Below are positions 1 to 45,677 of a DNA stretch of 64,000 bases, piece after piece. The stretch comes from Minisyncoccota bacterium (GTDB lineage: Bacteria > Patescibacteriota > Minisyncoccia > Phycocordibacterales > CAJBRS01), in contig DASRDX010000012.1 in the NCBI GenBank assembly GCA_035652395.1, forward strand, positions 23,861-87,860. Direction: 5' to 3'. The translations under genes were made by a program, and so were the position numbers. Numbering within the stretch: position 1 is the stretch's first letter; every line of letters begins with the position of its first letter. A model generated the notes under the pieces. The model saw nothing but the letters and a program-made list of their open reading frames with translations, was not told where the DNA came from and did not search any database.

Positions 1-757
1 TGATGCAGGCGATTAAATCGCGCTGTTCACACTTGGTTTCCCTATGACTCCACGCTTTTGGCGCTTAGTCGAACCGCATGCATCAACTCGTTGGCTCATT
101 CTTCAATAGGCACGCCGTCGAGGACTTGCGCCCTCTTCGACTCCTTGTAAACATATGGTTTCAGGTCTATTTCACAACCCTCACCGGGTTTCTTTTCACC
201 TTTCCCTCGCGGTACTAGTTCACTATCGATCACAAAATGTATTTAGCTTTGCCGGTTAGTTCCGGCGGATTCCCCCGAGCCATTCGTGTCTCGAGGTACT
301 CAAGAATAGCAATAAGAGATGTTTCGTTTTCACGTACAGGGCTATTACCTCCTGGGGCTTTGCTTTCCAGCAAATTCCGTTAACAAAACATTTTGTAACT
401 CTTTCAGTAATAAATACTAAATTGCTACCTTACAACCCCCAATCACCCAACGGAGTGCACTATTAAAAGTGCCTTCCGTTGGAAGATTAGGTTTGAGCTT
501 AATTCCTTTTCGCTCGCCGCTACTTAGGAAATGTTGCACTTGCGTGCATTGTTTTCTTTTCCTCCAGGTACTGAAATGTTTTACTTCCCTGGGTATGCAT
601 TCCACTAGTTGTGGAATTTCTGCCGAAGCAGAAAGGTTTCCCTATTCGGAGATCTCCGGGTCAAAGGTTGCTAGGCACCTCACCGAAGCATATCGGAGCT
701 ACGCACCGTCCTTCATCGCCATTTTGTGTCAAGGCATCCACCATATGCTCTTAAATT
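1..757 (-). rRNA. rrl: 23S rRNA, 5' ~750 nt (gene continues beyond window start)
   Basis: Reverse complement of 690-760 reads ...TTAAGAGCATATGGTGGATGCCTTGACACAAAATGGCGATGAAGGACGGTGCG..., the conserved 23S 5' domain. Further in: ...CCGGAGATCTCCGAATAGGGAAACC... and ...GAACCGACTAAG... GGGAAACCAAG..., matching 23S domain I/II. The 5' end is placed by similarity only. Confidence 0.88.
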
Positions 758-1196
758 CCCATTAGGAAATTTAAAAATCATTACTTATTAAACAACCACT
801 GCTTAATAAGTTATTTGCTTGTTTATTTTTTAGTTGGTTGGATTTCGCAAAGCGAAATCCAACTTACCTGCCCTTATCAGATTCTTGAGAAATCCAATAA
901 GGTTTGTTCAATCAACTTCTCTCCGAAATTAATTGAACTATTATCTCCGTTACTTAAAAGACCCTCTGTTAAAAGGAGTAACGTGATAATCATTTAATTT
1001 TCAAAGTGTCTGTCGGCCAGAAGGTCTCAATTTGAGACGAAAAAAACCGCTTTTCTAGCGGCTTGTTAAGACCACGCATCAAAAGACGCCTAGTCTAGCC
1101 GCTTATGAAGTTAGGGTTTTTAAACATAATCTGTATAGAGGCATTATATACTCTTGAAGAAGGTTGTCAAATAAGGCTATATTGAGCCTTTTTAAT

Positions 1197-4066: not shown

Positions 4067-4259
4067 TTTATTTCAGCTTATAGCTATTCTCGACCTTAAG
4101 GCTCCAACAAAAAATCCGCGAAGGCGCGGAATTGAGAAGCAAAAACCTGCGGTTTTTGCCTTTACCTCGAGAGGGCTTATCTGGTTTTCTCTCCATCGCC
4201 TCTTGTCTTTGGCCTTGTAAAAATTAGTATAGTCAAAAAAGAAAATGTGTCAATTATTA

Positions 4260-4805
4260 TTATTTTCCCATTCTTTCATTCTCTTTCTCTTTCTCTTTCT
4301 CTTTCTCTAAGATTTCATATTTATTACCAGCCACATTAGCGCAAAGTTGAATAAAGGAGGCGACTCCAGAAAGAGCCAAGAGTAAAAGAACGATATAAGT
4401 AACCGGAGATAAGTAATACAAAAATAGCGCAATCATAGTCGTCCACCAACCAGTACACCAGACACACTCAATGGTCTCGGCAATAGCGCGGCGAATTCCG
4501 GGCTTGACACGAGTCTTGACAACCATCTTCTCCCCGCCTTCCACTGCCTCAACGATAGTCTTGTCGTATTGAAAGAGTTCCCGCTTCCAGCGCAAAATCT
4601 TGTCATAAGTTGCACCTCGAATCATCCGGAAACTCGCGAGCGCCACGAGCACTGCTCCCGAAAAAGTAATAGTTCGGGGCAGGCTGCCGTTTACTTTAAT
4701 TAAAATCCAACCAAGAATAATGGCCACGATCAAAAAGGCGCCGCCGGGGATGAGCATGTTATAGAAAATCTGCCTATCCTCTCCTTGAGATACTTTATTT
4801 TCCAT
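4260..4805 (-). CDS. DUF1360-like integral membrane protein (CxWCxGWW motif) with C-terminal (EK)n tail
   Basis: 181 aa, 3-4 TM segments, motif CVWCTGWWTT typical of DUF1360. The C-terminus EKEKEKEKENERMGK is encoded by a hexanucleotide repeat. Confidence 0.5.
   Translation of the reverse strand: MENKVSQGEDRQIFYNMLIPGGAFLIVAIILGWILIKVNGSLPRTITFSGAVLVALASFRMIRGATYDKILRWKRELFQYDKTIVEAVEGGEKMVVKTRVKPGIRRAIAETIECVWCTGWWTTMIALFLYYLSPVTYIVLLLLALSGVASFIQLCANVAGNKYEILEKEKEKEKENERMGK
4278..4308. repeat. (CTCTTT)n hexanucleotide microsatellite, ~5 units, inside the 3' end of CDS 4260..4805
   Basis: ctctttctctttctctttctctttctct; encodes the (EK)n tail on the minus strand. Confidence 0.8.
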
Positions 4806-4841
4806 ACCTTAATTATAGCTCAAATAAATGAATAAATTCAG

Positions 4842-5279
4842 CTATTTAGACGCCGGATTTTGAAGAATCTTTCGGTTTTGCCAATAGGCTGCCGTCAGCA
4901 TTATTAGCACAAATAAGAATAATGATATCCCCAGATAAACCAATCCCGGATCAAAGCAGATGGCCCAGCAGCCGGTTTGTTGGTGGTAGGCGTAATATAG
5001 GAAGCCGGCTAAGGGAAGATAAATTAGAGTTCCGATTAAAATTTTTGCCCGAAAAACCCTAGAGAATCTTGCCGTTAAAGTCATGGCTGTTAAGAAACCG
5101 CACAAACCGAGCAAGAAACAGACTTTTTGGATTAAGAGAATGGTTTTGGAGGGAAGTTCGTTAGAGTAAAACAAATTGTCGTAAAGGAAGCCGGTAGCAA
5201 GAATAATAACAATCAAGCCGAGAGTTACTGAAATCCAATAATTACTTCTTTTGGCTAACTGATGAAAAGATTCGTTCAT
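4842..5279 (-). CDS. Small polytopic membrane protein (4 TM), hypothetical
   Basis: 145-aa hydrophobic ORF. Its start overlaps the upstream gene's stop by 4 nt (ATGA-type coupling). Confidence 0.5.
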   Translation of the reverse strand: MNESFHQLAKRSNYWISVTLGLIVIILATGFLYDNLFYSNELPSKTILLIQKVCFLLGLCGFLTAMTLTARFSRVFRAKILIGTLIYLPLAGFLYYAYHQQTGCWAICFDPGLVYLGISLFLFVLIMLTAAYWQNRKILQNPASK

Positions 5280-8200
5280 GAATTTGAATTCAGGCTATCC
5301 AAAAGCTGATTGAGCAAATCGATTAAGGCTTGCGCGTCAGCTTTGGAAATTTTTTGATGTTTGCCATGTTTACTCATTTTTGCTTCAAGCGTGGCATTAA
5401 ACGCCTTAATTTTCTTAGTAGCATTTTTAATTTTACCTTTATTAATTAATTTTAGTAAGTCATCGATTTTGTTTAAAATTTTACTGCGAAGGTTTTCCGA
5501 AATATCCAAACTTAAAACAAGTTTTCTAATTAATGTTAAGTAATAAGCGGGATCAATTTCGGTAGAGGCTGTGCTGCTCGCATCTATTATCCCGTCACCG
5601 TCCTCATCAATCAGTAGGACTGGAGGAGATGATGGAGAGGAAGTCGAGGAAATTACCAATTCGGCGCTAGTCATCGGCGTCACCGGAAGATCAGCGAAAA
5701 GATTGTCTATAATTTGGGTGTCGCCGTCGAACTTTCGTTCCTCTAGAGTAAAACTACCTACATCTAAACCGCTTAACTTGAAACGATAATCTCCGTCCGG
5801 CAGATCAAGATATTTCCCTTCCCCATTTTCCTGATAAGAGCTGTTTGGAATATTTTCCTCCGTAAATTGAAGATCGGTAGAAGGGCTGCTAGAGCTAGTA
5901 AGTCCGGTGTGATTACCGAATGCGTCATAGGCGTCAATAGAAACTGGAGAATGAACACTTATTTCCAGATTGGAGCTGTTATTAGACGTTGGTTTGTTAA
6001 GAGAAATATAGCTCGGCAAAGAGGATGTTCCCTTAATCAGGTTGGCAATTAATTCCTCCACCGGTTTGGTTTCCAGAAGAAAGGCGTGACTGGCATTTTG
6101 TTTATTATTGGAGTTGTAATCTCTGACATTCATATAAAGCTTGGTGCCTGTCTCACTAACGCTGTCACTAACCACCGTTCCATCGCCATCCATAGTTTTT
6201 ATTAACTGATGATCCAACTCGTAACTACAAGGAATAATCGCCAGAAGACAATGCTCTTTACCTAAGTATTCCAGACCATTGGTAGTATTGATGCCCCAAC
6301 CGGCAACCTCTACCACCTGAAGACCTGTCGGAGGAGTCCAGTTATCAAGCTGGCTATGAACGGTTTTGGCACTTGATAAAAGACCGGGGTTCAAAACGTT
6401 TGGATCTGAAATATCAAATTCAGATGGTTTACTTCGACCGTCTTTTGCCAGAAGAAAACTGGAGAGGTTCGAGAGATTATTAATATTGTTGCCGTAAATT
6501 TTCCGAAAGTTATTTATTTTATTTACTGAGGCGTCAAACTGAACGACCGGGGTATTAGTTTTGTTAAAATATTTCTGATTTGGAAGAAGGTTGTAGGCCG
6601 CGGGCATATTCTCTCCCAAACTTCGAGCAGTGGATTTGCTTAGACCAATCGGTAAATTTTGTTCATCACCATGAAGCAATCCTCCGATGACTTGCGGAGT
6701 GCCAAGCTCCGGCGAAGCGACCATCACTAAACGATCTACCAAACCGGCTTTATTTTTCTTTTTCAGAAAATCAATTAAGGCTTTGGCTAGAAGACCGCCA
6801 TTACTGTGAGCGACAATCGTTACTTGGTGGCTCTTGGAAGAGGAAGCTAGCCGATCAATTTCATCCGGAAGCGATATGTATTGATTATTGGCTAACTTAA
6901 TTCCATTTACGATCAGATCATTGTAGTCGCGTCGCCAATCATACGGAACAGCTTCCCAAGCGTTTATAGTTCCCCCTGTCACCAGAGTATTCATAAAATC
7001 CGAGAATTTTTGATAAACATCTTTGTCAAATATTCCGAAGCCGACATTAGTTTTGTTGATAATATCCCGCGTATAAATACTTTGGTCGAGTGCCTCACCG
7101 TGACTATCCATTTTTAATTTGTCGGCGTCGGCGTTTCTATTCGGCTCCCAAAGCTGGTTTTCGGTCAAGAGTCCCCGATTATAAAGACGGCTGGCCTCCA
7201 GCCCCGGCAAGAAGAGAACATTTGAACCGCTGGTGATTGAAGCAGTAGAAGTAGCAGCGCCGGCAAACGGATCAGTGGAAAGCCATGGACTATAGAGAAC
7301 ATTATCCGAAACTTGGTTGCCTGAGCCCGAGGGATTGGAACTCTGGTTGAAAGGTCCGCTTTGATCTCCCCACCAGATATTTTGGGCGAGCAAGCTCGGA
7401 CTACCAGTATAAATTAGACCGTTGTTGTTCTCTTGAATGCTGCTAGTGGAAACAACCAGAGAGGGATCGGCGAAGGAAAGGCCAGTCCCATTATTAATTA
7501 TCTGACTATTGGTGAGATTGACTTGGCCGTTTAGGAATTCTTCAATGCCATTATTCTTAAAATGACTGATCGTGGAAGAAGAGATGTTTATTTTGCTGTC
7601 ATTGTATATCATCAGGCCATCAGCTAAGCCCTTATCAACTAAACTATTTGTGAGATTAGCCTCAGAGGATTCATTTCGATAGATAAGGAGAGCCGAGAGG
7701 CCATTTAAATTGGAAAGCTTTGAATTACTTATAGAAAGTCCGCCATTATCGTAAGCAGTAATACTTCCCTGATAGGAAGTAGGGTTTATATTCTGAATAG
7801 TCGAACTAGAGATGGTAGCTTTCGAGTCATTAAAGACAAGAAAAGCCGATATGCCATTTATATTATTGATACTTGAGCTACCCAAAGTCAGGGCGCTGGA
7901 ATTGTAGACAGAGAAACCGCCAGATGAGTTCTCCAGACTGGAATTATTAAAAGAAAGAGTGCTGCTCCCATATGAGGTAAAGGCTGCTCCGGAGATATTT
8001 TGAAATTGACTATTGTTTACGGATAATTGACTGCCGTTTAAAGTTAGGACGCCTGAGCTTGTAGCAAACTGAACATTTTGAAAATCTCCAAAGGAATGCA
8101 GAAGGAAAAATCCGGAATTAGAATATCTCACCATAATATTCCGTAAGGAAAAAGTGATTGGGCTTTCAATAAAAGAAATACCACCCCAATCTCCGGCGCT

Positions 8201-8533
8201 TGGATTGCCGGTTCCGGTGCGCCCTCCGACAGAATTGTCATTTATTGAAGTGAAATAAATTTTATTGGCGGAAGAACCAACAGCATCCAAACCGCCGGCA
8301 ATAGTGAGACTCGCTCCCTGTCCGAATTTGACTATTGCTCCTGGCTCTATTACCAGCGTAGAACTAGCTGTTACGTAAAGAGGGCTGTTAACAAGGTAAG
8401 GACTTTCGGCCTTAGTCCAAGTAGTATTGACGTCGAGCGTACTACTTGAAACAACAGTGGAAGCCGACAAAGAAAACGGGAATAAAATTGCGGTTAATAA
8501 AACTAAAACTATCTTTTTAAATTGTTTTTTCAT
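5276..8533 (-). CDS. Large secreted multidomain protein: signal peptide + parallel beta-helix repeats + alpha/beta-hydrolase lipase domain (lipase class 2 / PGAP1-like GxSxG) + C-terminal helical/dockerin-like tail
   Basis: 1085 aa. N-terminal MKKQFKKIVLVLLTAILFPFSLSAS signal. Residues ~130-380 are N/S/G-rich degenerate repeats (NxSGxxFxxYNSSxLxLxxSxI) typical of right-handed beta-helix. VTIVAHSNGGLLAKALIDF is a nucleophile elbow and LVMVASPELGTPQ a second lipase motif. DEDGDGIIDAS is a Ca-binding-like loop. The K/L-rich alpha-helical C-terminus follows. Confidence 0.7.
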   Translation of the reverse strand: MKKQFKKIVLVLLTAILFPFSLSASTVVSSSTLDVNTTWTKAESPYLVNSPLYVTASSTLVIEPGAIVKFGQGASLTIAGGLDAVGSSANKIYFTSINDNSVGGRTGTGNPSAGDWGGISFIESPITFSLRNIMVRYSNSGFFLLHSFGDFQNVQFATSSGVLTLNGSQLSVNNSQFQNISGAAFTSYGSSTLSFNNSSLENSSGGFSVYNSSALTLGSSSINNINGISAFLVFNDSKATISSSTIQNINPTSYQGSITAYDNGGLSISNSKLSNLNGLSALLIYRNESSEANLTNSLVDKGLADGLMIYNDSKINISSSTISHFKNNGIEEFLNGQVNLTNSQIINNGTGLSFADPSLVVSTSSIQENNNGLIYTGSPSLLAQNIWWGDQSGPFNQSSNPSGSGNQVSDNVLYSPWLSTDPFAGAATSTASITSGSNVLFLPGLEASRLYNRGLLTENQLWEPNRNADADKLKMDSHGEALDQSIYTRDIINKTNVGFGIFDKDVYQKFSDFMNTLVTGGTINAWEAVPYDWRRDYNDLIVNGIKLANNQYISLPDEIDRLASSSKSHQVTIVAHSNGGLLAKALIDFLKKKNKAGLVDRLVMVASPELGTPQVIGGLLHGDEQNLPIGLSKSTARSLGENMPAAYNLLPNQKYFNKTNTPVVQFDASVNKINNFRKIYGNNINNLSNLSSFLLAKDGRSKPSEFDISDPNVLNPGLLSSAKTVHSQLDNWTPPTGLQVVEVAGWGINTTNGLEYLGKEHCLLAIIPCSYELDHQLIKTMDGDGTVVSDSVSETGTKLYMNVRDYNSNNKQNASHAFLLETKPVEELIANLIKGTSSLPSYISLNKPTSNNSSNLEISVHSPVSIDAYDAFGNHTGLTSSSSPSTDLQFTEENIPNSSYQENGEGKYLDLPDGDYRFKLSGLDVGSFTLEERKFDGDTQIIDNLFADLPVTPMTSAELVISSTSSPSSPPVLLIDEDGDGIIDASSTASTEIDPAYYLTLIRKLVLSLDISENLRSKILNKIDDLLKLINKGKIKNATKKIKAFNATLEAKMSKHGKHQKISKADAQALIDLLNQLLDSLNSNS

Positions 8534-8611
8534 GCGGTCATTATTGCGAATGACCCGTGAAAAGATTTTAAATGATAGTTAAAATCTTCATGAAATATGA
8601 AGAAGGAGATG

Positions 8612-8648
8612 AAAAAGGGCGGCCGTCAATTGACGGCCGCCCTTTTTA
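8612..8648. terminator. Palindromic terminator-like hairpin
   Basis: AAAAAGGGCGGCCGTCAATTGACGGCCGCCCTTTTT. Confidence 0.55.
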
Positions 8649-8792
8649 TTATTGATTGCTCTCTACGGTGCAACAGAGCTGACTTTCGGGAGAGACTGGC
8701 TGATAGCGACCAATGACTATAAACAGAGTGAAGCTAAAAAGCAGAATGATTAGGAAGATGGTAATGAATTTAAATGCGGTCTTATCAAACAT
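8649..8792 (-). CDS. Possible small hydrophobic peptide (47 aa), hypothetical
   Basis: MFDKTAFKFITIFLIILLFSFTLFIVIGRYQPVSPESQLCCTVESNQ; one TM segment, bracketed by two terminator hairpins. Too short for the ORF track; no clear SD. Confidence 0.25.
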   Translation of the reverse strand: MFDKTAFKFITIFLIILLFSFTLFIVIGRYQPVSPESQLCCTVESNQ

Positions 8793-8892: not shown

Positions 8893-10758
8893 CTAGGTTC
8901 GAGTGACTGGGTCTGTATGCCAGTTGTCAAAGCCCCAAGTCTGCTGGATGTTCTGGAATGCACCATTAACATCTTGAACAGTTGAAGAAGCTCGAGTGAC
9001 ATAGTAGACGTTCGTTCCAGCTGCGGTCTGAGTATCGTTTACCGTTAAGGTAATGTTATACGTCTGACCTTGAGCAAGAATGTTGTTTGTCGGTGTAGGT
9101 GAGATCACTACGCTCTTGTTTACAAGAGTCGTACTTGATGCATGTCTAGCAACGACATCGAAGTCACTTCCGTTAGCGGCGTAGGCGAAAGCCTGACCTG
9201 GGTAAGGAGTAGCAGTGAAGTGGAAGTTGACCTGAACAGCGGTGGTGTTACCACTGGTGTTGTTGGTCTTGGTGTAATCAGCTGATACGAACTGGAGGTT
9301 TGGTGTAGCTCCGAATTCGTACTGATTATTTCCTCTTACAACAGAGTTTGAAGTCTGCTGATTTCCATTGCTATTCTTGTAGGTCACTGAAGTTACCGTG
9401 GCGCTAGCAATAGTTCCTGAAGCGGATGTGGCTGGGAAGTCAGCTTTGATGCTGTAGACATTTCCACCATTAGTTGTACCGCTGTTGAACTGATCTAGGT
9501 TGTTGAAGGTAACTGTTGAAGAACCGCTAAGAACTGGTTGATACTGCAATCGGGTAGCTCCCTGGAAGAGAGTAACGCCGGTTGGAGGAGTACCGGTTCC
9601 GTTTGTCATGATGTTAGCCGTTACCTGGGTCAACTGAGTTGTACCCTGAGTGGTATTGGTGTTGAAGGCCAAGAGGGTCACAGGATTGTTCTGTGTACCA
9701 ACTTTAGCATCAACGTAGTTAGTCAATGACAATGGGTTTGACTGATCAACACCGACAATCAAGGTTGAATTTCCTGGTTTGCTGAAGATTTGAACGACAG
9801 TCATTCCAGAAATATCAACGTAGTTTGAAGTGTTATTTACTCCTGTGTAGTAAAGCAATGAGGTAGCGCCATAACCACGGATGGTGATGGTTCGATTGGT
9901 ATCGATGCTGCCTGCAGTGCTAAAGCTTACGGTCAAGAGCTTGGTTGTGTTAGCAGGTACCATGAAATTGATACCGCTAAGTCGCAAGTAGTAGTCAGTT
10001 GAAGAAGTACCGGTGACAAAATCAGCAGAGCTTACGTTTCGGTTGAGAAGAACGGTTGATCCATCCCAAATCTTAACGTTGTTGATGAAGTTGCCTGGGT
10101 TTTCTGTCTGACCGCTAGCATTGTCGTTCACATCGAGGTCAATTCGATCTACTCGAACTGAACCAAGCTGTGCTCGAAGCTGAAGTCCGTAGACTGGAAC
10201 ATCAACGTTCTGTTGAATGTTGCTGTTACCACCTGGAGGACCCTGAGTAACGGTTAATGTTCCGTCACTTGAGGTAGTTGTAGTACCTCCGACTGGAGTA
10301 CAGGTGTATCCTGCTGGGCAGGTTACGCCAGTATTGTTTGGAGTACAGGTCATTCCTGCTGGGCAAGAAGTTGTACCGCCAGTGCTTGAACCCGTGAAGA
10401 GTTCAGGATGAGCAGCAATGTAAGCTCGAGTGATAGGACCGAAGTATCCAGCGGCTGGTGAAATATTCACGCTAGCCTGGAAAGCGGCCACAGCAGCTCG
10501 AGTAAGGGTGCCGAAGTATCCGAAAGCAACGCCAGCTGGCATTACTAGGAAACCGTGAGCAACCAACATTTGCTGAAGAGCGACAACGTCAGCTCCTCGA
10601 CTACCTACTGTCAGGTTTGAACTGAAAGTGTAGGGAGCCGCAACTGTAGTTGTAGTGCTAGTAGTGGTAGTAGTCATGGTGTCGGCGCTCGCAATGGAGA
10701 CAAACATCATGGCTAGAGCCAAGACTGCAACAACAACTTTCTTTGTGTTTGTTGACAT
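8893..10758 (-). CDS. Secreted/cell-surface protein: signal peptide, Thr-rich linker, peptidoglycan-binding-type (PG_binding_1-like) domain, Cys-rich repeats, large beta-rich C-terminal domain
   Basis: 621 aa. MSTNTKKVVVAVLALAMMFVSIASA signal; TTTTSTTTT linker; GSRGADVVALQQMLVAHGFL...GYFGTLTRAAVAAFQ resembles PG-binding repeats; CPAGMTCTPNNTGVTCPAGYTCTP duplicated Cys motif. Confidence 0.6.
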   Translation of the reverse strand: MSTNTKKVVVAVLALAMMFVSIASADTMTTTTTSTTTTVAAPYTFSSNLTVGSRGADVVALQQMLVAHGFLVMPAGVAFGYFGTLTRAAVAAFQASVNISPAAGYFGPITRAYIAAHPELFTGSSTGGTTSCPAGMTCTPNNTGVTCPAGYTCTPVGGTTTTSSDGTLTVTQGPPGGNSNIQQNVDVPVYGLQLRAQLGSVRVDRIDLDVNDNASGQTENPGNFINNVKIWDGSTVLLNRNVSSADFVTGTSSTDYYLRLSGINFMVPANTTKLLTVSFSTAGSIDTNRTITIRGYGATSLLYYTGVNNTSNYVDISGMTVVQIFSKPGNSTLIVGVDQSNPLSLTNYVDAKVGTQNNPVTLLAFNTNTTQGTTQLTQVTANIMTNGTGTPPTGVTLFQGATRLQYQPVLSGSSTVTFNNLDQFNSGTTNGGNVYSIKADFPATSASGTIASATVTSVTYKNSNGNQQTSNSVVRGNNQYEFGATPNLQFVSADYTKTNNTSGNTTAVQVNFHFTATPYPGQAFAYAANGSDFDVVARHASSTTLVNKSVVISPTPTNNILAQGQTYNITLTVNDTQTAAGTNVYYVTRASSTVQDVNGAFQNIQQTWGFDNWHTDPVTRT

Positions 10759-26070: not shown

Positions 26071-28011
26071 TTATTTCACCACCTGATCATCTCCCGAATG
26101 AAAGGCCGGATCGGTGCTTAAGCGAGTAGTCAATTCTTTATTAGTATTTGTCAAAATCGTATTGGTAAAGTCATCGGTACCTTTAACCGTCGCTTCATTG
26201 ATTAAGTTGGGAGAGCTGCCAAACTGGCTGACGCTCGGCAAAAGCGAAATCTGGAAAGAAAGGCGTCGTGGCGAATTCACAAAACCGGTGCCGGCATCCA
26301 GATTTCCAACTTTCCAAGTAATTTGTTTGTTAACAGGATTAAATGTGACGTCTTCATTAGTAGGGCTAATCTTCCCGAGCCAGCTAACATAACTTGGCAA
26401 TGTAGCTGTGACTGTCACGTTATCCGCTCGATTAAAAGAATTAGTCAAAGCCCAGTTAATAGTATAGGTAGTCGGTACTTCGGCTTTTGGCGGAAGTGGG
26501 CCGCTGTTCTGGAACGGTCCAACTGAATAGACAGCTGAAGATGTCAGCAGTAAATTAGAAGCTACTTTCAGAGTGGTTGAGCCGCTAGTGTTAATGGATT
26601 GCGGAACATTTGATTCCGAAAGACGTTGGCCAGTGACACTCTCATTAAATGTAATAATTGGATTACGGAAGGAGCTCATGGTTTGATAATTAGTTGGAAC
26701 AGTTTGAAAAGTGAAGTAGACTCCTCCTTTAGCTCCCGGGCCAATATTGGCCAAATCCGGAGTGTTGGTCTGATCCCAAGTCAGAGTATTGTCGGCCGAT
26801 CGATAAAAACCTCCGCCCGCATCCACAGATGTTTTGTCCAGAATTGGTCCGTTTAATTTAACCGAGATGGACGCATTGGTAATGGAAGTATTCAGATTAT
26901 TTTTCCAATTAATGGCTCCGTGAACAAGTTGCCCGCTTTGAATAACGTGAATGGTGGCCGGATCGCCATCAAAAGTCAGTGGCGTTTGGAAAAATGGCTT
27001 GCTAATCGCTACCGTCTGAGAGGTGTTAATAAAAATGGTGCTGATGTTACTTTGACTCGAGCTTGAGGCAGTACCGGTGTAGAAATGGAAGACTCTTTGA
27101 TCGCCGTCTTCGCCGGTAATTCGTCCCGTAATAGTAATATCGCGACTTGCCCCTTTTGAAAGAGTGCCGAGATTCCAGACATTTTTCAGAAAGGTAGGAG
27201 TCGGAGTAGCATTCTCAAAGCTAAAACCAAATGGATAATCTACTTTCAAAATTAAGTTATTTAAATCTATACCGGAATTTGAAACAAGATGAGCATTAAG
27301 AGTCAGCTCTTCGTTTGAATTAATTTCTTTCAGAGAATCAATGGTTAAGGTGACGGGCGCAGAAGCGATTAAAATACTGTAATCACTTTCTTTGGAATAG
27401 ACAGCATTCGAACCGGCGATGCGGTAAGTTAGAGTCACTTTAATAGTTTGATGACTGTTTTCTTCACCGTAAAGAACAGATTTGGCCGTCTCCCTAAGAG
27501 ACTGGCCGGGATTAATAGTTTCAATTGAAAGTTGGTCGGATTTTAAGGGAGTATTAAAGTCGGCGGCACTTTTTGTTCCGTCTGGATAATCAAAGGTGAG
27601 GTCAGCCAATTGCAGCGGAATATTATTCTTGTTTGTAATTTCCACATCAATAGAAAGAGCTTGGCCGGCAGCCACAGAAACAGGCGCGATAATGGCCATA
27701 TTAATATTATTGGAAGAGACGACGTTCGAGCCACGGAAATAAACGTAGGCGGCCACGGCGATGGAAGCGACAAAGAAAATAACGGCAAAGATTAAAAGAC
27801 CGCGAAAGAAAAAACTGTATTGATTAGTGTCGGATTCGGCCCCGAGAAGAATCGGCTCTTGATCAATTGGCGGCTTTTCCCAATCTTTTTTCACCTCAAA
27901 CTCCCCTGGATGAAGCTTGCGGCGCTTAACTTCCGATGGAGGCGGATGGCTCTTTGAATAAAGGCTTTTGCGCAGTTCATTTATTTTATCCTGCTCTTCC
28001 GGCGTTGGCAT
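26071..28011 (-). CDS. Membrane-anchored large extracytoplasmic beta-rich protein, hypothetical
   Basis: 646 aa; cytoplasmic N-terminus, single TM (LLIFAVIFFVASIAVAAYVYF), then a long S/T/N-rich beta-strand domain. Confidence 0.5.
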   Translation of the reverse strand: MPTPEEQDKINELRKSLYSKSHPPPSEVKRRKLHPGEFEVKKDWEKPPIDQEPILLGAESDTNQYSFFFRGLLIFAVIFFVASIAVAAYVYFRGSNVVSSNNINMAIIAPVSVAAGQALSIDVEITNKNNIPLQLADLTFDYPDGTKSAADFNTPLKSDQLSIETINPGQSLRETAKSVLYGEENSHQTIKVTLTYRIAGSNAVYSKESDYSILIASAPVTLTIDSLKEINSNEELTLNAHLVSNSGIDLNNLILKVDYPFGFSFENATPTPTFLKNVWNLGTLSKGASRDITITGRITGEDGDQRVFHFYTGTASSSSQSNISTIFINTSQTVAISKPFFQTPLTFDGDPATIHVIQSGQLVHGAINWKNNLNTSITNASISVKLNGPILDKTSVDAGGGFYRSADNTLTWDQTNTPDLANIGPGAKGGVYFTFQTVPTNYQTMSSFRNPIITFNESVTGQRLSESNVPQSINTSGSTTLKVASNLLLTSSAVYSVGPFQNSGPLPPKAEVPTTYTINWALTNSFNRADNVTVTATLPSYVSWLGKISPTNEDVTFNPVNKQITWKVGNLDAGTGFVNSPRRLSFQISLLPSVSQFGSSPNLINEATVKGTDDFTNTILTNTNKELTTRLSTDPAFHSGDDQVVK

Positions 28012-28640: not shown

Positions 28641-29203
28641 TATTTTGATATCTCCAATAATTTCTCTAAAACAATTGGTAGTTCATTAAAACCATCTTCC
28701 CCATTTATGTGTCCGGCGTTTTTAATAATAATTATTTCTGGATTCAATCGTTCCTTAAATAGTTGAGTATTTTCTTCAAATGGCACCACCGGATCATTAT
28801 CCGAAAAGATTGTGACTATTCTAGAAGAGCGTTTTTTTATCATTGCAAAATCAATTGGTGTCTTGAACCACGGTTCAGCTATCTCGTCTTCCCCTTCTAG
28901 GTTCATCAATGTAAACCATGGGGCTACTAATATAGTGCCCCCCATAGCGTTTCCGGGTCTAGCCAAATAACGAAGAGCGGTTTGCGTACCAATGCTATGG
29001 CCAATTAAATAGGTGTTTTTATCAGTTTTACCGATGATCTTTTCAAGCTGAGAAACCCACTTATCAATTTGAGGGGTTTCTGTCTCTGGCATATCCGGAA
29101 CCTGTACTTCAAAACCTCGAACTTCTAATTCTTTTTTCAGCCACGGAAACCAATCAGATTTCGAATCAGCTCCCCAGCCATGGATAATAATTACTCTTTT
29201 CAT
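28640..29203 (-). CDS. Alpha/beta serine hydrolase, RBBP9/YdeN-like family
   Basis: VIIIHGWGADS...YLIGHSIGT (GxSxG)...; ~190 aa, typical of the PF06821-like family. Confidence 0.65.
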   Translation of the reverse strand: MKRVIIIHGWGADSKSDWFPWLKKELEVRGFEVQVPDMPETETPQIDKWVSQLEKIIGKTDKNTYLIGHSIGTQTALRYLARPGNAMGGTILVAPWFTLMNLEGEDEIAEPWFKTPIDFAMIKKRSSRIVTIFSDNDPVVPFEENTQLFKERLNPEIIIIKNAGHINGEDGFNELPIVLEKLLEISK

Positions 29204-32200
29204 TTCATGATTTTCAATCTTACGGCCATATCTTCAATTTGAATTTCTTTTCCCTCGCCATCTTCAAACTTAATCTCCTTTAAACCGGTGGCGTGGGAAA
29301 TTTCGGTCTGGAATTTTTTAATTAGAGCCTCGCCAGCTGGGCTTGCTGAAATTACAAGCCCAGCCTTTTCTCCTACCTGTAGTCCTTCTTCTTTTCTCAA
29401 ATCTTGAATGGCTCTCATAAGTTCACGTACCTGTCCTTCTTCTTTTAATTCAGAGGTAATGTTGGTATCCAGATGAACTTCACTGTCAAGATGTTTGTCA
29501 ATATGCACCTCTTTGATGTTCAATTCATCTTTAATTAATTCCAAAAAATCTTCACCTAAACCTTTAAATTTAATTACCAACCGTTGAAGAGGCTGTCGGA
29601 CTTTAATATTCCCTTTAGCTCGCGCTTCCAAGCCAAAGGAGACAATTCTTCTAGTTTCTTCCATATCTTGAAGCAGATTTTTAGAGCTTGAAGCTGAAGG
29701 ATTAGGCCAATTTTCCAAATGTACACTTTCTTTGCCATCTTCGCCTTTCACTTTTTGATAAATATCTTCGGCTAGAAATGGCATAAATGGCGCCACTAAT
29801 TTTGAAAATTGCAGCAGAACGAAATGAATGGTGGAGAGAGCCGCCTGTTTGTCATCTTCGTCTTCACTCTTGAATCGTTCGCGGGAGCGCCGTAAATACC
29901 ATGTTGAAAGATCGTCAATGAAATTGGCAATCGGTCGAGCGGCTTTGTCCAATTCGTATTTATCCAGATTCCTTGTGATTTCATTATTTAACTCATTTAG
30001 TCGAGCAATAATCCATTGGTCTAGAATATTTTCAGATTTCGAATTTTGGACTTCGAATTTTCCGTTTTTATACAATTCGTAGAAACTGACAACATTAAGC
30101 AGTCGATTTAATACTTTTTTAGTCACTTCATCCAGCCCTTTTTCGGAAAAGGCCACTTCTTCAGCCCGCACTGCCGGAGAAGAAATCAGGAAATAACGCA
30201 AGGCATCTGCGCTGAATTTGTCGATGGTAGGCTCAAGATCTGGATAATTTTGCAGGCTTTTGGACATCTTGCGGCCATCTTCAGCTAAAATTAAGCCGTT
30301 TACTACCACATTTTTATAAGGCGACTGATCGAACAATTCATAATTCAAAACTAGAAGCGCGTAAAACCAGCCGCGGGTCTGATCCAGCCCTTCGGCGATA
30401 AAATTAGCTGGGAATATGGTCGGTTTTGCTTTACCAAAAAAGCTTTTTTTAACAGACGCAGGATCATAGGGAAAATGGAGTTTGCCGTATGGCATCGATC
30501 CCGACTCATACCAAACGTCAAAAACTTCCGGCACTCGCCTGAATTCGTCACCGCAATCACATTTCCAAGTCACCTCATCGATAAATGGTCGATGAAAGTC
30601 CAGCTGATATTTTTCATTATGTGGGATTTCAGCAAAATCAAAATTCCTAATTTCGGCGTTTGTGAGCATCCATTTATTTTCAAACTGTTTCCGCCAACTT
30701 GTTATGTCTTGATTAAAAACCCCATCTGCCCCCATCATCATTAATTCTATCGGTAAATTGTGGGAAATGATAAAAATATTTTTCCCTTTGTATTTTTTAT
30801 CAATCTCATAGAGAAATTCCATGACTCTGTTTTTTACATCTGACCAATTTTCTCCACTTTTGGGTTTTTTGATAAATCGATCTTCCCGAGAAGCAAACTG
30901 CTCATGATATTCTTTCCAGCTTTTACCCTCATACTCACCCGCATCTAATTCCCTAAGGCGTTTATCAACAATAATTTTATCTTCTGGGAGATTAAGTACT
31001 TTATTGACAATGTCCTTTGTCTCCGTTGTTCGGAAAAAATCTGAGACAGCCAATAGATCCACTTTTTGATGTTTTAAGGTTTTAGCGGCATTTTCTACTT
31101 GTTCTTTCCCTAACTTGGTTAAATGATCCTCGTTGGAATAAACAGAACTAACTAAGTTTTTAGTGTTGGCCTCAGACTGCCCGTGCCGCATCAAAAAATA
31201 ATTATTTCGTCGCGTTTTGGCTTGGATATCGGCGAGAGATCCCAAAACTTCCCGCTTTTCACATTTTTCGCATTTCCAGACCGGAATTGGGGCACCCCAA
31301 TAACGGGAACGGGAAATAGCCCAGTCACGGGCTCCTTCGAGCCAGTTACCAAAGCGATTTTCGCCAATATTTTTAGGCACCCAGTTTATTTTCTGGTTTT
31401 CGGCGACTAACTTGTCTTTAAAGTCCGTTACCCGAACAAACCATGAGGAAGTGGCGTAATTTAATAGCGGCGTCTCACAGCGCCAGCAGTGCGGATATGA
31501 GTGAACAATCTTCTCTTTGGCATAGAGAAGGTTGTGATGAGCCAGATATTTAATAATTTCTATATCAGCTTTTTGGTGATCATCTTTTGGTTTAGCTAAT
31601 TCATTAGCAAAATCTTCTACTTCTGCCTTAAATCGGCCGTTCGAATCAATGTGCTGGATAAACGGAAGTCCTTCTTTTTTGGCCAATTGAAAATCCTCAT
31701 CACCAAAAGCCGGAGCCATATGCACAATGCCTGTTCCTTCTTCGGTAGTAACAAAGTCGGCGGCATAAATTTTCCAGCCGCGTTTTTCGGCATTCGCATT
31801 CCCCTGAACATCTTTTAACGGAACATTTTGATAATAATCAAAAAGAGGTTTGTAAGGCTGACCGATTAATTCGTTAGAGCTGACATTTTTTTCGATATCG
31901 TAAGGTTTATCTTTAAAAACGCCGGCCAGTCGATCTTTGGCCACAATATAAGAAATTCCTTCACTTTCCACCTGGACATATTCAATTTTTGGATTGATGG
32001 CGAGAGCTACATTTCCGGGCAAGGTCCACGGTGTAGTGGTCCAGGCCAAGACAAAAACATCCGGTTTATTAATCAATTCGAACTTAGCGTAGACGGAAAT
32101 GTCCGTGATATCTTTATAACCCTGATTGACTTCAAAGTTTGAAAGTGGAGTGCCGCAGCGCGGACAGTATTGCATCACCAGAAAGCTCTGGTAAATGCGT

Positions 32201-32700
32201 CCTTTTTTGTCGAGCTCTTTGAAAGACCACCAAACACTTTCGGTGTAAGTCGGATCCATCGTTCGATAATCATTTTCCATGTCTACCCAACGAGCGATGC
32301 GTGGGATGATCTTCTTCCATTCGTCGGCATAACGCAAGACACTCTTTTTGGCGGCCGCATTGAATTTTTCAATACCGTACTGCTCAATGTCACGTTTGTT
32401 GTTCAGTCCCAATTCTTTCTCAATCAGATTTTCAATTGGCAAGCCGTGACAATCCCAGCCCCATTTTCGCTCCACGTGATATCCTTGCATAGTTTTGTAA
32501 CGCGGAATGACATCTTTTATAGTGTTGGGCAAAACATGGCCGAAGTGAGGCAAGCCGGTGGCAAAAGGAGGACCGTCATAAAAAACAAAATTGCCTTTCG
32601 GCGACTCTTTGGAAAGGCTTTTCTCAAAAATCTGATTTTCCTGCCAGAATTTTAGGGTTTCCTCTTCTTTTTTGGCAATTTCGCTCTTATTTAAAGCCAT
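29200..32700 (-). CDS. ileS: Isoleucyl-tRNA synthetase (type with CxxC Zn knuckle) carrying an inserted histidine-phosphatase (PGAM-like) domain
   Basis: PFATGLPHFGHVLPNT (HIGH), WTTTPWTLPGN (editing domain), KMSKSLQN. Between WKCEKCEK and WKCDCGDEF sits a ~200-aa block beginning LMRHGQSEAN and containing FIISHN. Confidence 0.9.
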   Translation of the reverse strand: MALNKSEIAKKEEETLKFWQENQIFEKSLSKESPKGNFVFYDGPPFATGLPHFGHVLPNTIKDVIPRYKTMQGYHVERKWGWDCHGLPIENLIEKELGLNNKRDIEQYGIEKFNAAAKKSVLRYADEWKKIIPRIARWVDMENDYRTMDPTYTESVWWSFKELDKKGRIYQSFLVMQYCPRCGTPLSNFEVNQGYKDITDISVYAKFELINKPDVFVLAWTTTPWTLPGNVALAINPKIEYVQVESEGISYIVAKDRLAGVFKDKPYDIEKNVSSNELIGQPYKPLFDYYQNVPLKDVQGNANAEKRGWKIYAADFVTTEEGTGIVHMAPAFGDEDFQLAKKEGLPFIQHIDSNGRFKAEVEDFANELAKPKDDHQKADIEIIKYLAHHNLLYAKEKIVHSYPHCWRCETPLLNYATSSWFVRVTDFKDKLVAENQKINWVPKNIGENRFGNWLEGARDWAISRSRYWGAPIPVWKCEKCEKREVLGSLADIQAKTRRNNYFLMRHGQSEANTKNLVSSVYSNEDHLTKLGKEQVENAAKTLKHQKVDLLAVSDFFRTTETKDIVNKVLNLPEDKIIVDKRLRELDAGEYEGKSWKEYHEQFASREDRFIKKPKSGENWSDVKNRVMEFLYEIDKKYKGKNIFIISHNLPIELMMMGADGVFNQDITSWRKQFENKWMLTNAEIRNFDFAEIPHNEKYQLDFHRPFIDEVTWKCDCGDEFRRVPEVFDVWYESGSMPYGKLHFPYDPASVKKSFFGKAKPTIFPANFIAEGLDQTRGWFYALLVLNYELFDQSPYKNVVVNGLILAEDGRKMSKSLQNYPDLEPTIDKFSADALRYFLISSPAVRAEEVAFSEKGLDEVTKKVLNRLLNVVSFYELYKNGKFEVQNSKSENILDQWIIARLNELNNEITRNLDKYELDKAARPIANFIDDLSTWYLRRSRERFKSEDEDDKQAALSTIHFVLLQFSKLVAPFMPFLAEDIYQKVKGEDGKESVHLENWPNPSASSSKNLLQDMEETRRIVSFGLEARAKGNIKVRQPLQRLVIKFKGLGEDFLELIKDELNIKEVHIDKHLDSEVHLDTNITSELKEEGQVRELMRAIQDLRKEEGLQVGEKAGLVISASPAGEALIKKFQTEISHATGLKEIKFEDGEGKEIQIEDMAVRLKIMK
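30601..31218 (-). other. Histidine phosphatase (phosphoglycerate mutase-like) domain inserted in IleRS (approx. residues 495-700)
   Basis: RHGxSExN catalytic motif (LMRHGQSEAN) and second His motif (NIFIISHNLPIEL), flanked by the two halves of the IleRS Zn-binding CxxC...CxC element. Confidence 0.7.
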
Positions 32701-44747: not shown

Positions 44748-45677
44748 TTAACGATTTCTTTTAATTCGTTTATTACCCTTTTCAATTTTACGCATGTTCG
44801 TTTCTACCAGATTTTGAAAAAGGGCCGCTACCGTCATTGGCCCGACGCCGCCGGGTACCGGCGAGATAGCTTTTACTATTTTAGAAACATTTTTGAAATC
44901 CACATCTCCTACCATTTTCGGAGCGCTAATTTCTTCCTGAAGCTTGGTGATTTTTTTATTCTTTTTAGATGAAGGGCGGCCGGCAATTAAGTTAATACCA
45001 ACGTCGACAATCACTTGACCCTTTTTGACATGCCGAGAACCGATTAAATTCGGTACGCCGGCCGCCACCACGAGAAGATCCGCTTGGCGAGTTTGAGCAG
45101 CCAGATCTTTAGTCTGCCGATGGGCGGTAGTGATAGTGGCTCCTTCTTTTAATAAGAGGGCGGCGGTCGGTCGGCCGACTAAAGCGGAGCGGCCGACCAC
45201 CACCGCTCTCTTTCCCCGAATGGGGATACGATAATATTTAATTAAATTAAGAATGCCGCGCGGTGTAGCGCCGATTAATCCATCGTCTTCTCCGGTCCAG
45301 AGTTTTTTAACATTTTTTGAATGCAAGCCGTCCACATCTTTCTCCGGCAAAATGGTTTCAATAATTTCACTCTTGTTAAGGTGGCGCGGGATCGGCAATT
45401 GAATAATTATGCCGTCTATTCGCCGATCCTTATTTAATTTCTCGATTACCTTGATTAATTTTGATTGGGCAATTGTGGCCGAAAATTTTAAATGAGTAAC
45501 TTTTGCTCCTATTTTTTCTCCGAAAAGTTTTTTCTGCCGAATGTAAGCGCTTGATTGAGCCAGATTTCCAATCTGAACAATAGCCAAAGTTGGTTTTTGG
45601 TCTAATTTAGCGATTTTTCTTTTTAAGTCGGCGGCAAATTTATCGCGAACGACTCTGCCATCTAGTATTTTAGCCAT
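44748..45677 (-). CDS. folD: Bifunctional methylenetetrahydrofolate dehydrogenase/cyclohydrolase FolD (C-terminal basic extension)
   Basis: ILDGRVV...LAIVQIGN...SAYIRQK...IIQLPIP...VDGL...GRSALVGRP...PVPGGVGPMTVAAL. Confidence 0.9.
   Translation of the reverse strand: MAKILDGRVVRDKFAADLKRKIAKLDQKPTLAIVQIGNLAQSSAYIRQKKLFGEKIGAKVTHLKFSATIAQSKLIKVIEKLNKDRRIDGIIIQLPIPRHLNKSEIIETILPEKDVDGLHSKNVKKLWTGEDDGLIGATPRGILNLIKYYRIPIRGKRAVVVGRSALVGRPTAALLLKEGATITTAHRQTKDLAAQTRQADLLVVAAGVPNLIGSRHVKKGQVIVDVGINLIAGRPSSKKNKKITKLQEEISAPKMVGDVDFKNVSKIVKAISPVPGGVGPMTVAALFQNLVETNMRKIEKGNKRIKRNR

Follow-up and report, generated by a model that had tools for sequence, protein, structure and literature searches.

A two-gene module was found on the minus strand of a 64,000-nucleotide (nt) stretch of DNA from a Minisyncoccota bacterium (contig DASRDX010000012.1 of assembly GCA_035652395.1), the whole of which is called the window below. 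The module is composed of a gene for a secreted, multi-domain hydrolase of 1085 amino acids (aa), related to LCAT and LPLA2, and of an overlapping gene for a 145-aa membrane protein, designated here as its partner. The enzyme combines an export signal with the fold and the conserved catalytic triad of its family, the two genes are linked across most of the related loci in which both could be looked for, and the partner is polymorphic. The enzyme is of a known kind, and the partner family is undescribed. We propose, at about an even chance, that the enzyme is a Sec-exported membrane-lipid hydrolase or transacylase which attacks or harvests the membranes of other cells, and that its polymorphic membrane partner shields the producer.

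The assignment of the enzyme relies on family profiles, catalytic residues and fold. Pfam LCAT (PF02450) matches residues 503-792 with 61.3 bits (cut-off 21; profile positions 62-356 of 392), the same cut-off is passed by five re-scanned homologs, and PF02450 is the precomputed family of all 120 of the 120 matches listed. S577 (in AHSNGG), D784 (in DGDGTV) and H816 are invariant in 27 diverse family members, and so are Y531, D532, W533 and R534 of the PYDWR motif (residues 530-534) in the family alignment. When a profile of the hydrolase domain only was used, PYDWR, AHSxG and GDxTV aligned onto the PYDWR, VAHSMG and GDGDGTV of LPLA2; H816 is presumably equivalent to the histidine of human LPLA2 and LCAT. 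An AlphaFold2 model of the whole protein, built on a 27-member family alignment, reached a mean predicted local distance difference test score (pLDDT) of 84, and its best Foldseek matches in the PDB are LPLA2 structures (4x90-97; E=3e-9, target TM-score 0.65-0.66), of which the whole 377-residue target is covered, the target TM-score for LCAT being 0.56-0.66.

An initial reading of this DNA, made from the letters and predicted open reading frames (ORFs) alone (hereafter the sequence-only reading), had described a lipase-type hydrolase core, with an esterase fold to be looked for around residues 560-700, and had suggested a search for Lipase_2/PGAP1 domains and a comparison with Tle-type effectors. 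The fold is present, and it is of the LCAT/LPLA2 kind. These families gave way to PF02450: PGAP1, DUF676, Tle3 and similar Pfam models stay below their cut-offs and cover only the nucleophile elbow of about 50 residues (Tle3, PF24322: 16.1 bits against a cut-off of 27, residues 559-608 only), and Tle4 (4r1d), sixth by E-value in the Foldseek search, is a poor fold match (target TM-score 0.43, root-mean-square deviation 12.3 Å). The 1085-aa hydrolase is of the LCAT/LPLA2-family type and not a Tle-type effector.

Around this catalytic domain, the model resolves a modular architecture whose coordinates are given in Table 1, and most of the features named in the sequence-only reading were recovered in it. 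The N-terminus MKKQFKKIVLVLLTAILFPFSLSA is signal-peptide-like, in agreement with the proposed Sec-type export, and no lipobox cysteine, LPXTG motif or C-terminal transmembrane (TM) segment was found in the protein. The suggested beta-helix repeats correspond to a Pfam Beta_helix match over residues 231-380 (48.4 bits, E=1e-12) and to strands that run across residues 25-420 in the model. This part has fold matches to the AlgG and AlgE4 epimerases, PL6 lyases and phage tailspikes (Foldseek against the PDB) and a profile match to the phage receptor-binding protein 8egr; it is a variable N-terminal module, probably for glycan or surface binding. A low-confidence linker (residues 425-434) follows. 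The motifs quoted in that reading, VTIVAHSNGGLL, VASPELGTPQ and DEDGDGIID, are all present, the last within the beta-sandwich that comes after the hydrolase domain. In the family alignment, D976 and D980 of this loop never vary, G979, G981 and D984 hardly do, and from the motif alone Ca2+ binding is plausible. Finally, the helical tail is a bundle of four modelled helices (995-1008, 1013-1031, 1035-1054 and 1064-1084). It resembles Pfam FIMAH (PF22888), which scores 18.2 bits in the window protein, below the cut-off of 24.8, and 26.5 bits, above it, in the homolog P0011. A single-sequence PDB search with the full protein gave only cytochrome b562 fusion tags, matched by this tail, which we attribute to compositional or helical similarity and not to homology. 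The epithet "giant" was too strong for the protein as a whole: it is secreted and multi-domain, and with 1085 aa simply large.

The partner gene is joined to the enzyme gene in a way that can be read directly. Three minus-strand ORFs lie head to tail at the coordinates predicted initially, and the 1085-aa gene ends, and the 145-aa gene begins, within the ATGA at 5276-5279, which bears out the 4-nt overlap. The third ORF, for a 181-aa DUF1360 protein, begins 36 nt past the 145-aa gene, and the gap holds a TATAAT box 6 nt before the DUF1360 ATG, so that a three-gene operon is an interpretation and not an observation. Of the operon originally suggested, the coupling of the first two genes stands and the membership of the DUF1360 gene does not (see below): the locus is a two-gene module, enzyme and partner, not a three-gene one.

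The 145-aa protein has four hydrophobic helices by hydropathy, as had been noted, with the N-terminus, the middle loop and the C-terminus inside according to the distribution of positive charges, and an outward loop with a cysteine pair (C104-x3-C108-F-D). A single-sequence model, of low confidence (pLDDT 65), shows the same four helices and a hairpin at residues 94-109. A word-index search found no relatives of this protein in 5.8 billion protein clusters, and an exhaustive HMMER scan of 1.84 billion representatives returned only the protein itself and one marginal partial match (P0135).

Searching by gene position gave a very different picture. Among 84 homologous loci of the enzyme (numbered with an L below), 73 had enough downstream sequence to look for a hydrophobic ORF following the enzyme gene. 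In 57 of them, an ORF of 84-181 aa with 2-5 TM segments (at least 3 by a crude counter in 54) starts between -4 and +39 nt from the enzyme stop, and profile searches add L070 and L081, which brings the loci with a partner to 59 of 73, or about 80%. The background is low, since of the 134 remaining ORFs in these loci that reach 300 aa, only 4 (3%) are followed by such an ORF. Two types could be distinguished. Type A (50 loci) is 120-150 aa long and has 4 TM segments, a basic N-terminus, a WxKFA-like motif in the inner loop and a basic tail, often with a cysteine pair in each outward loop and C-x3-5-C-[FY]-[DN] before TM4. Type B (7 loci, plus L088 and L089) is about 92-103 aa long with 3 TM segments. 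Neither type matches a Pfam or PADLOC family. CidB/LrgB (NCBIfam), with E=0.005 and 16 bits where the cut-off is 250, was rejected, and so was a Lipocone/VanZ-type membrane enzyme, for which there was no family match and no conserved polar TM residue in the type-A consensus or the A3 alignment; the enzyme-partner module is not described in the Lipocone paper.

The window's own partner is far from these families. Against a profile of all partners built without it, it scores E=4.2e-4 among 9,901 ORFs (best reversed decoy 0.11), it does not match a profile of type A only, and hhalign gives a probability of 48% (P=1.9e-4) over TM3, the loop and TM4. In size, in its four helices and in the distribution of positive charges it agrees with the family, and its C104/C108 pair aligns with the family's cysteine loop. 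We regard it as the positional and topological equivalent of the other partners, and probably as a very diverged member of type A.

Divergence of this order is a general property of the partner slot. L088 and L089, whose ribosomal proteins are 74-77% identical to those of the window, have an unrelated 95-aa partner with 3 TM segments. More than one partner gene occurs in 8 of the 60 loci with profile matches, and in 7 of these a single enzyme gene is accompanied by 2-4 paralogs: three after the enzyme gene in L023 (5069-6500), one before and three after it in L070 (3662-9300), and two each in L035, L045, L047, L077 and L081. L030 (855-6500) has instead two tandem enzyme genes, the first followed by a type-B and the second by a type-A partner. 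Paralogs within one array are 26-63% identical to each other, with identical C-terminal tails in L023, L035 and L045 and identical or similar N-termini in L023 and L070; their differences therefore lie in the middle, and the shared ends suggest cassette-like diversification or gene conversion at the ends. Within type A, conservation is lowest in the first outward loop (14% mean identity, BLOSUM mean of about 0, most insertions) and highest in the inner loop and TM4. Polymorphic effector-immunity systems are marked by close linkage, hypervariability, additional diverged copies and tandem cognate pairs, and for this reason we prefer self-protection as the role of the partner, which is probably protective, or immunity-like, for the producer. 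The earlier suggestion that both small membrane proteins are immunity proteins thus retains its force for the 145-aa slot, which is linked, hypervariable, arrayed and moves with the enzyme, and loses it for DUF1360.

The enzyme belongs to a large family. Of the candidates scored, 279 are relatives at E<=1e-5, the best being only 39-47% identical, and a scan of species-representative genomes (one genome per species) yielded at least 562 confirmed stretches with relatives, nearly all of them labelled Patescibacteria, Paceibacterota, Parcubacteria or Saccharibacteria, the last possibly a placeholder label. In the 84 loci, the hydrolase domain is found 84 times, the beta-sandwich 81, the beta-helix 44 and the helical bundle, as far as it is detectable in sequence, 47; hydrolase and beta-sandwich are the constant core of the family. 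NosD-like, DUF5018, DUF642 or MBG modules take the place of the beta-helix, or stand besides it, in further members, and the closest relative, in L089, has no N-terminal module whatever, so that the N-terminal part looks like a swappable targeting module. We take the DUF642, DUF5018 and NosD-like modules to be of the carbohydrate-binding type.

The pair is found in several genomic settings. It lies upstream of rplJ in the window, L004, L088, L089 and L091 (L006 has the same synteny without a partner gene), between MacB-type transporter genes and ychF in L001, and, in L003, between the SHMT and ArgRS/IleRS genes, the corresponding region of the window (29-39 kb) being without the pair. The rplJ-upstream location accounts for 25 of the 84 loci. 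Being found in at least three different chromosomal settings, the pair appears to move as a unit. In L091 (3486-4839), a BrnT/CopG-like toxin-antitoxin pair and a Y1 transposase gene stand immediately upstream of the LCAT-like gene, neighbours that hint at mobility of the region. Comparison of the window with L089 gives identities of 88% for the MscS-like protein, 76% for L10, 74% for L7/L12, 74% for DUF1360 and 72% for FtsK, against 57% for the enzyme core, 45% for the helix-turn-helix (HTH) protein, 39% for the protein with a PG_binding_1 domain and none detectable for the partner. Enzyme and partner evolve much faster than those neighbours at 72-88%.

LPLA2 and LCAT form an acyl-enzyme at the lipid interface and are capable of both hydrolysis and transacylation. 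As to what the enzyme acts on, which way the acyl group moves, whether the partner protects and what the module is for, we infer the following scheme. The enzyme would be exported via its Sec signal peptide, its beta-helix module would most likely bind cell-surface glycans, and, in analogy to LPLA2 and LCAT, it would dock on a lipid bilayer. Ser577 would then be acylated from a glycerophospholipid, and the acyl chain of the resulting acyl-enzyme would pass either to water (phospholipase A, giving a lysolipid and a fatty acid) or to an acceptor (transacylase). The partner, whose two ends lie in the cytoplasm and whose two outward loops are short, would shield the producer's own membrane, and the purpose, in a lipid-auxotrophic bacterium, would be to attack or harvest the membranes of a host or neighbour.

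Several points weigh against this proposal. The identity to LCAT and LPLA2 is remote (12-16% in fold alignments; profile E-values of 0.004-0.08 against PDB sequences), and alpha/beta-hydrolases of similar fold can act on non-lipid esters. As to the partner, 14 of the 73 loci lack one, some of the enzymes there keeping the same C-terminal domains, and the relation between the window's 145-aa protein and the main partner family is weak and changes with the profile used. It is also hard to see how the short outward loops could block an enzyme of 400 residues. Lipase immunity proteins such as Tli and TilA, moreover, are soluble in the periplasm or are lipoproteins, and are not known to be small polytopic proteins.

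The partner could instead be a membrane dock that holds the enzyme on the producer's surface, through the beta-sandwich or the tail, for lipid harvest and without any self-protection. The enzyme has no anchor of its own, the beta-sandwich is constant (81 of 84 loci) and the tail often conserved, and translational coupling suggests matched amounts of the two proteins; moreover, the bundle is detectable in 37 and not in 20 of the partner loci, as compared with 7 and 9 of the partnerless ones. However, two to four strongly diverged paralogs beside one enzyme gene are not expected of a simple anchor, the partner is wholly different in close relatives while the C-terminal part of the enzyme is still 50-57% identical, some partnerless loci keep the tail, and the outward loops comprise only about 12-25 residues. 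Across the loci, partner presence is independent of the beta-helix and weakly dependent on a detectable tail, with no clear signal that would separate an anchor from an immunity protein. A dock is possible, and we find it rather doubtful.

A role on glycans, in which the protein would be a surface enzyme or adhesin with a beta-helix that binds or cleaves polysaccharide and a hydrolase that is a non-lipid esterase, for example a deacetylase, was also considered. The beta-helix indeed resembles alginate epimerases, PL6 lyases, tailspike depolymerases and the PfbA adhesin, and other members carry the DUF642, DUF5018 and NosD-like modules taken above as carbohydrate-binding. This part is nevertheless dispensable, being present in 44 of 84 loci and missing from the closest relative, whereas the constant part is the LCAT/LPLA2-type domain, with the family-specific PYDWR and with lipid enzymes as best fold matches (377 residues, TM-score 0.65); a membrane partner would also be hard to explain for a glycan esterase. 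We consider this role unlikely.

Alternatively, the pair could serve the producer's own envelope, the enzyme transferring acyl chains of scavenged phospholipids to the cell's own lysolipids, lipoproteins or glycolipids and the partner presenting the acceptor or handling the lipid. LCAT is itself a transacylase, and the neighbourhood upstream of rplJ in which 25 of the 84 loci are found is a conserved, housekeeping one. In the candidate phyla radiation (CPR), membranes are moreover reported to be rich in lysolipids, with key acyl-activation genes missing (PMC7242380). A housekeeping pair should however be conserved, and these are among the fastest-evolving genes, the partner being an orphan; the enzyme is lost entirely in the close relative L090, and the partner arrays and swappable targeting modules point outward, to other cells. 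An envelope function is, in our judgement, quite improbable.

The third gene of the locus was correctly recognised at the outset as DUF1360-like (Table 1). In four related genomes (window, L088, L089 and L091), it follows the module within a conserved block made up of FtsK, HTH, PG_binding_1, [enzyme, partner], DUF1360, rplJ, rplL and MscS-like genes, and its close relatives, 71-81% identical, sit in that same block. L090 has the block intact with DUF1360 kept and, by tblastn, no LCAT-like gene; in the more distant L004 and L006, of the same synteny, the enzyme gene immediately precedes rplJ and DUF1360 is missing. In none of the 84 other homologous loci is there a DUF1360 ORF at a distance of up to 5 kb from the enzyme gene. 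Given this absence, its retention in L090, its slow evolution and its own -10-like box, DUF1360 is a lineage-specific neighbour: a vertically inherited bystander and not a member of the module. It shows the conserved synteny with unrelated genes that the sequence-only reading had itself named as evidence against a second immunity gene. A three-gene operon in which the 145-aa and DUF1360 proteins would both confer immunity to a Tle-like lipase effector, attractive for the closeness and common orientation of the genes and for the order seen in those four genomes, is therefore very improbable, since DUF1360 and the enzyme are each found without the other, since DUF1360 is as conserved as ribosomal proteins (74%) and has its own TATAAT box in the gap, and since the enzyme does not reach the Tle models and no genes of a type VI secretion system (T6SS) were seen among the examined neighbours. 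A low-complexity (EK)n tail, EKEKEKEKENERMGK (4260-4310, minus strand), closes the DUF1360 protein. No relevant literature on DUF1360 or FIMAH was found.

Table 1. Features of the module and of its immediate surroundings (window coordinates).
Feature	Coordinates	Strand	Basis or description
Enzyme gene, 1085-aa secreted multi-domain LCAT/LPLA2-like hydrolase	5276..8533	-	ORF, Pfam, AlphaFold2 model
Signal peptide, residues 1-24, MKKQFKKIVLVLLTAILFPFSLSA	8462..8533	-	direct reading; residues 1-22 of low pLDDT
Right-handed parallel beta-helix, residues 25-420	7274..8461	-	Pfam Beta_helix and continuous modelled strands
Alpha/beta-hydrolase domain, residues 437-835	6029..7225	-	Pfam LCAT, fold matches
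PYDWR codons	6932-6946	-	
Ser577 codon	6803-6805	-	
Asp784 codon	6182-6184	-	
His816 codon	6086-6088	-	
Beta-sandwich, residues 850-990	5564..5986	-	strands in AlphaFold2 model
DxDxDG-type loop DEDGDGIID, residues 976-984	5582..5608	-	inside beta-sandwich
C-terminal four-helix bundle, residues 995-1085, FIMAH-like	5279..5551	-	AlphaFold2 model
Partner gene, 145 aa, 4 TM	4842..5279	-	ATGA overlap with enzyme gene, hydropathy
DUF1360 membrane protein gene, 181 aa	4260..4805	-	Pfam DUF1360 (PF07098), 61.2 bits against a cut-off of 21
Inverted repeat GGTCATT-N6-AATGACC	8536..8555	-	perfect 7 bp, in the 5' leader, ends 2 nt before ATG
A/T-rich perfect inverted repeat, 10 bp, AAGATTTTAA-N7-TTAAAATCTT	8562..8588	-	spans TATCAT hexamer of promoter-like site 8601..8572
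Intrinsic-terminator-like hairpin	8612..8647	-	16-bp stem with 10 GC pairs, then T-run
rplJ promoter-like site TTGACA-16-TATACT	4253..4226	-	sigma-70-like, 11/12 match, directly after the stop of the 181-aa gene
L10 leader	4100..4230	-	full-length Rfam L10_leader, 34 bits, E=3.7e-4, below gathering score of 44

On the upstream side, the enzyme gene is preceded by two strong terminator-like hairpins (8850-8819, 8647-8612) and then by a single weak promoter-like site (8601-8572, a consensus match only), so that it opens its own transcription unit. A 47-aa ORF with one hydrophobic helix, MFDKTAFKFITIFLIILLFSFTLFIVIGRYQPVSPESQLCCTVESNQ (8649-8792, minus strand), stands alone between the two hairpins. 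The A/T-rich repeat AAGATTTTAA-N7-TTAAAATCTT forms an 11-bp stem in the leader fold, and its sole other match in the window, with 3 mismatches, is inside ftsK. Closer to the start codon lies the GGTCATT-N6-AATGACC repeat, which had been described as abutting the ATG and as a possible regulatory hairpin or operator. The repeat is there, separated from the ATG by 2 nt, with a predicted hairpin energy of -8.2 kcal/mol. Perfect 7-bp inverted repeats with 3-8-nt loops number 109 in the window (about 1 per 590 nt, as against about 26 in shuffles), and one would fall within 20 nt of a given site with a probability of about 3%, so that the repeat is only mildly unusual. No counterpart was found upstream of the homologs in four relatives (L001, L003, L004 and L006) and no second copy of the motif in the window, and the hairpin was rejected as a conserved regulatory element. 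As no Shine-Dalgarno sequence is evident in the leader, the hairpin may affect translation initiation; for a regulatory role, comparative support is lacking.

On the other side, the L10-leader match sits between a near-consensus promoter and rplJ, with rplL next, and together with the rplJ promoter-like site (4100..4253) it marks the downstream boundary of the locus. The motif GGCCAAAGACAAGAGGCG of the L10-leader region (4100-4230) is also present upstream of rplJ in L006.

The PG_binding_1 gene directly upstream of the enzyme gene (8893-10758, minus strand) keeps this position in several relatives and has homologs in 16 of the 84 loci; it is fast-evolving, as the comparison with the L089 copy shows. 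Its 621-aa product is one of two secreted proteins of the window with an N-terminal PG_binding_1 domain and is very Thr-rich, the other (588 aa; 49367-51133, minus strand) having a PKD domain.

In the rest of the window, the larger ORFs scanned are those expected of reduced Patescibacteria, among them RecA, tRNA synthetases, enzymes for folate and thymidylate, and PilM. The isoleucyl-tRNA synthetase (1166 aa; 29200-32700, minus strand) has an inserted His_Phos_1 (histidine-phosphatase) domain at residues 502-667, and the same inserted form is the last gene of L003. A 452-aa membrane protein (45670-47028, minus strand), in which a VTT/DedA-type domain is fused to a PAP2 phosphatase domain, handles lipid or polyprenyl phosphate and is the only clearly lipid-related gene among the ORFs scanned against Pfam. 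For the 646-aa ORF at 26071-28011 (minus strand), no Pfam family matched at E<=1e-5. The start of the window cuts a 23S rRNA gene, of which the 5' part is included (1-764, minus strand; Rfam LSU_rRNA_bacteria, 518 bits), and several short ORFs there are therefore not genes.

Patescibacteria (CPR) account for a considerable part of bacterial diversity and are presumed to obtain their lipids from other cells. They are described as being without lipid synthesis, and no mechanism of lipid uptake or breakdown has been identified in them (PMC11665869, PMC7242380). Lipidomics has attributed unusually abundant lysolipids to CPR cells, which a phospholipase A could generate (PMC7242380). Our literature search found nothing that links LCAT or PF02450 with Patescibacteria. 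The family described here is a candidate for lipid acquisition in the CPR: its secreted enzyme, of the phospholipase-A/transacylase type, is encoded in hundreds of genomes at species level, has interchangeable targeting modules and comes with a cognate membrane partner that diversifies fast. We put forward, tentatively, that the pair is the lipid-acquisition machinery of Paceibacteria-type CPR, in which a surface-targeted enzyme would strip acyl chains or lysolipids from host or neighbour membranes and the partner would either protect the producer or receive the product. If so, the lysolipid-rich membranes of the CPR would be explained, and the variation of targeting modules and partners would track host range. 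If the partner is an immunity protein, it would represent lipase immunity conferred by a small polytopic membrane protein, and the module would be evidence for polymorphic effector-immunity systems that use plain Sec export in ultra-small bacteria.

Among known systems, the beta-helix module has the fold of AlgG, AlgE4, the PL6 lyases, CBA120 TSP3 and phage Andhra gp15 (profile E=9e-9 for the last), but, unlike in those proteins, it is optional and interchangeable with other binding domains in the enzyme family. LPLA2 (PDB 4X90-4X97) and LCAT (4XWG, 5TXF, 6MVD) share with the window enzyme the PF02450 family, the PYDWR, AHSxG and GDGTV motifs and the Ser/Asp/His triad, and are its best structural matches over the whole catalytic unit. 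In contrast to them, the window enzyme is bacterial and Sec-secreted, is flanked by an N-terminal module and by a beta-sandwich with a helical bundle, and has a membrane partner.

For the partner, the immunity proteins of pore-forming colicins have 3 or 4 TM helices, and the membrane Tsi proteins are likewise small and polytopic. These proteins resemble the partner in being about 90-180 aa long with 3-4 TM segments, encoded beside the toxin gene, fast-evolving and sometimes present in extra copies. Colicins, however, insert pore-forming helices, whereas the window enzyme is a hydrolase without a hydrophobic hairpin, and no sequence or family relation of the partners to small polytopic immunity proteins was found.

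The idea closest to ours in the CPR comes from the predator Vampirococcus lugosii, which a secreted phospholipase was proposed to feed with host phospholipids (PMC8080830). It shares with our proposal a lipid-auxotrophic CPR bacterium that damages host membranes for their lipids, but concerns one gene of one genome with unnamed homologs in parasitic bacteria, and includes neither an LCAT-type fold nor a partner gene nor a phylum-wide family (PMC8080830).

Finally, the Tle/Tli pairs (Tle4-Tli4, PDB 4R1D) have in common with the module a hydrolase with a GxSxG-type elbow directed against membrane lipids, an adjoining protective gene and polymorphism, target and protection being predicted here. 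They differ in that the window enzyme uses a Sec signal peptide and belongs to a monoderm-type CPR bacterium, with no VgrG, PAAR, Hcp or other T6SS context among the annotated neighbours (FtsK, HTH, PG_binding_1, rplJ/rplL and MscS-like) and the 20 larger ORFs scanned elsewhere in the window, all of them housekeeping genes. The partner, too, is a membrane protein of 3-4 TM segments without a match to a Pfam or PADLOC family, whereas Tli proteins are periplasmic proteins or lipoproteins and are not known to have 3-4 TM segments. The module is therefore not a member of Tle/Tli, and it would work in the manner of a lipase effector-immunity pair.

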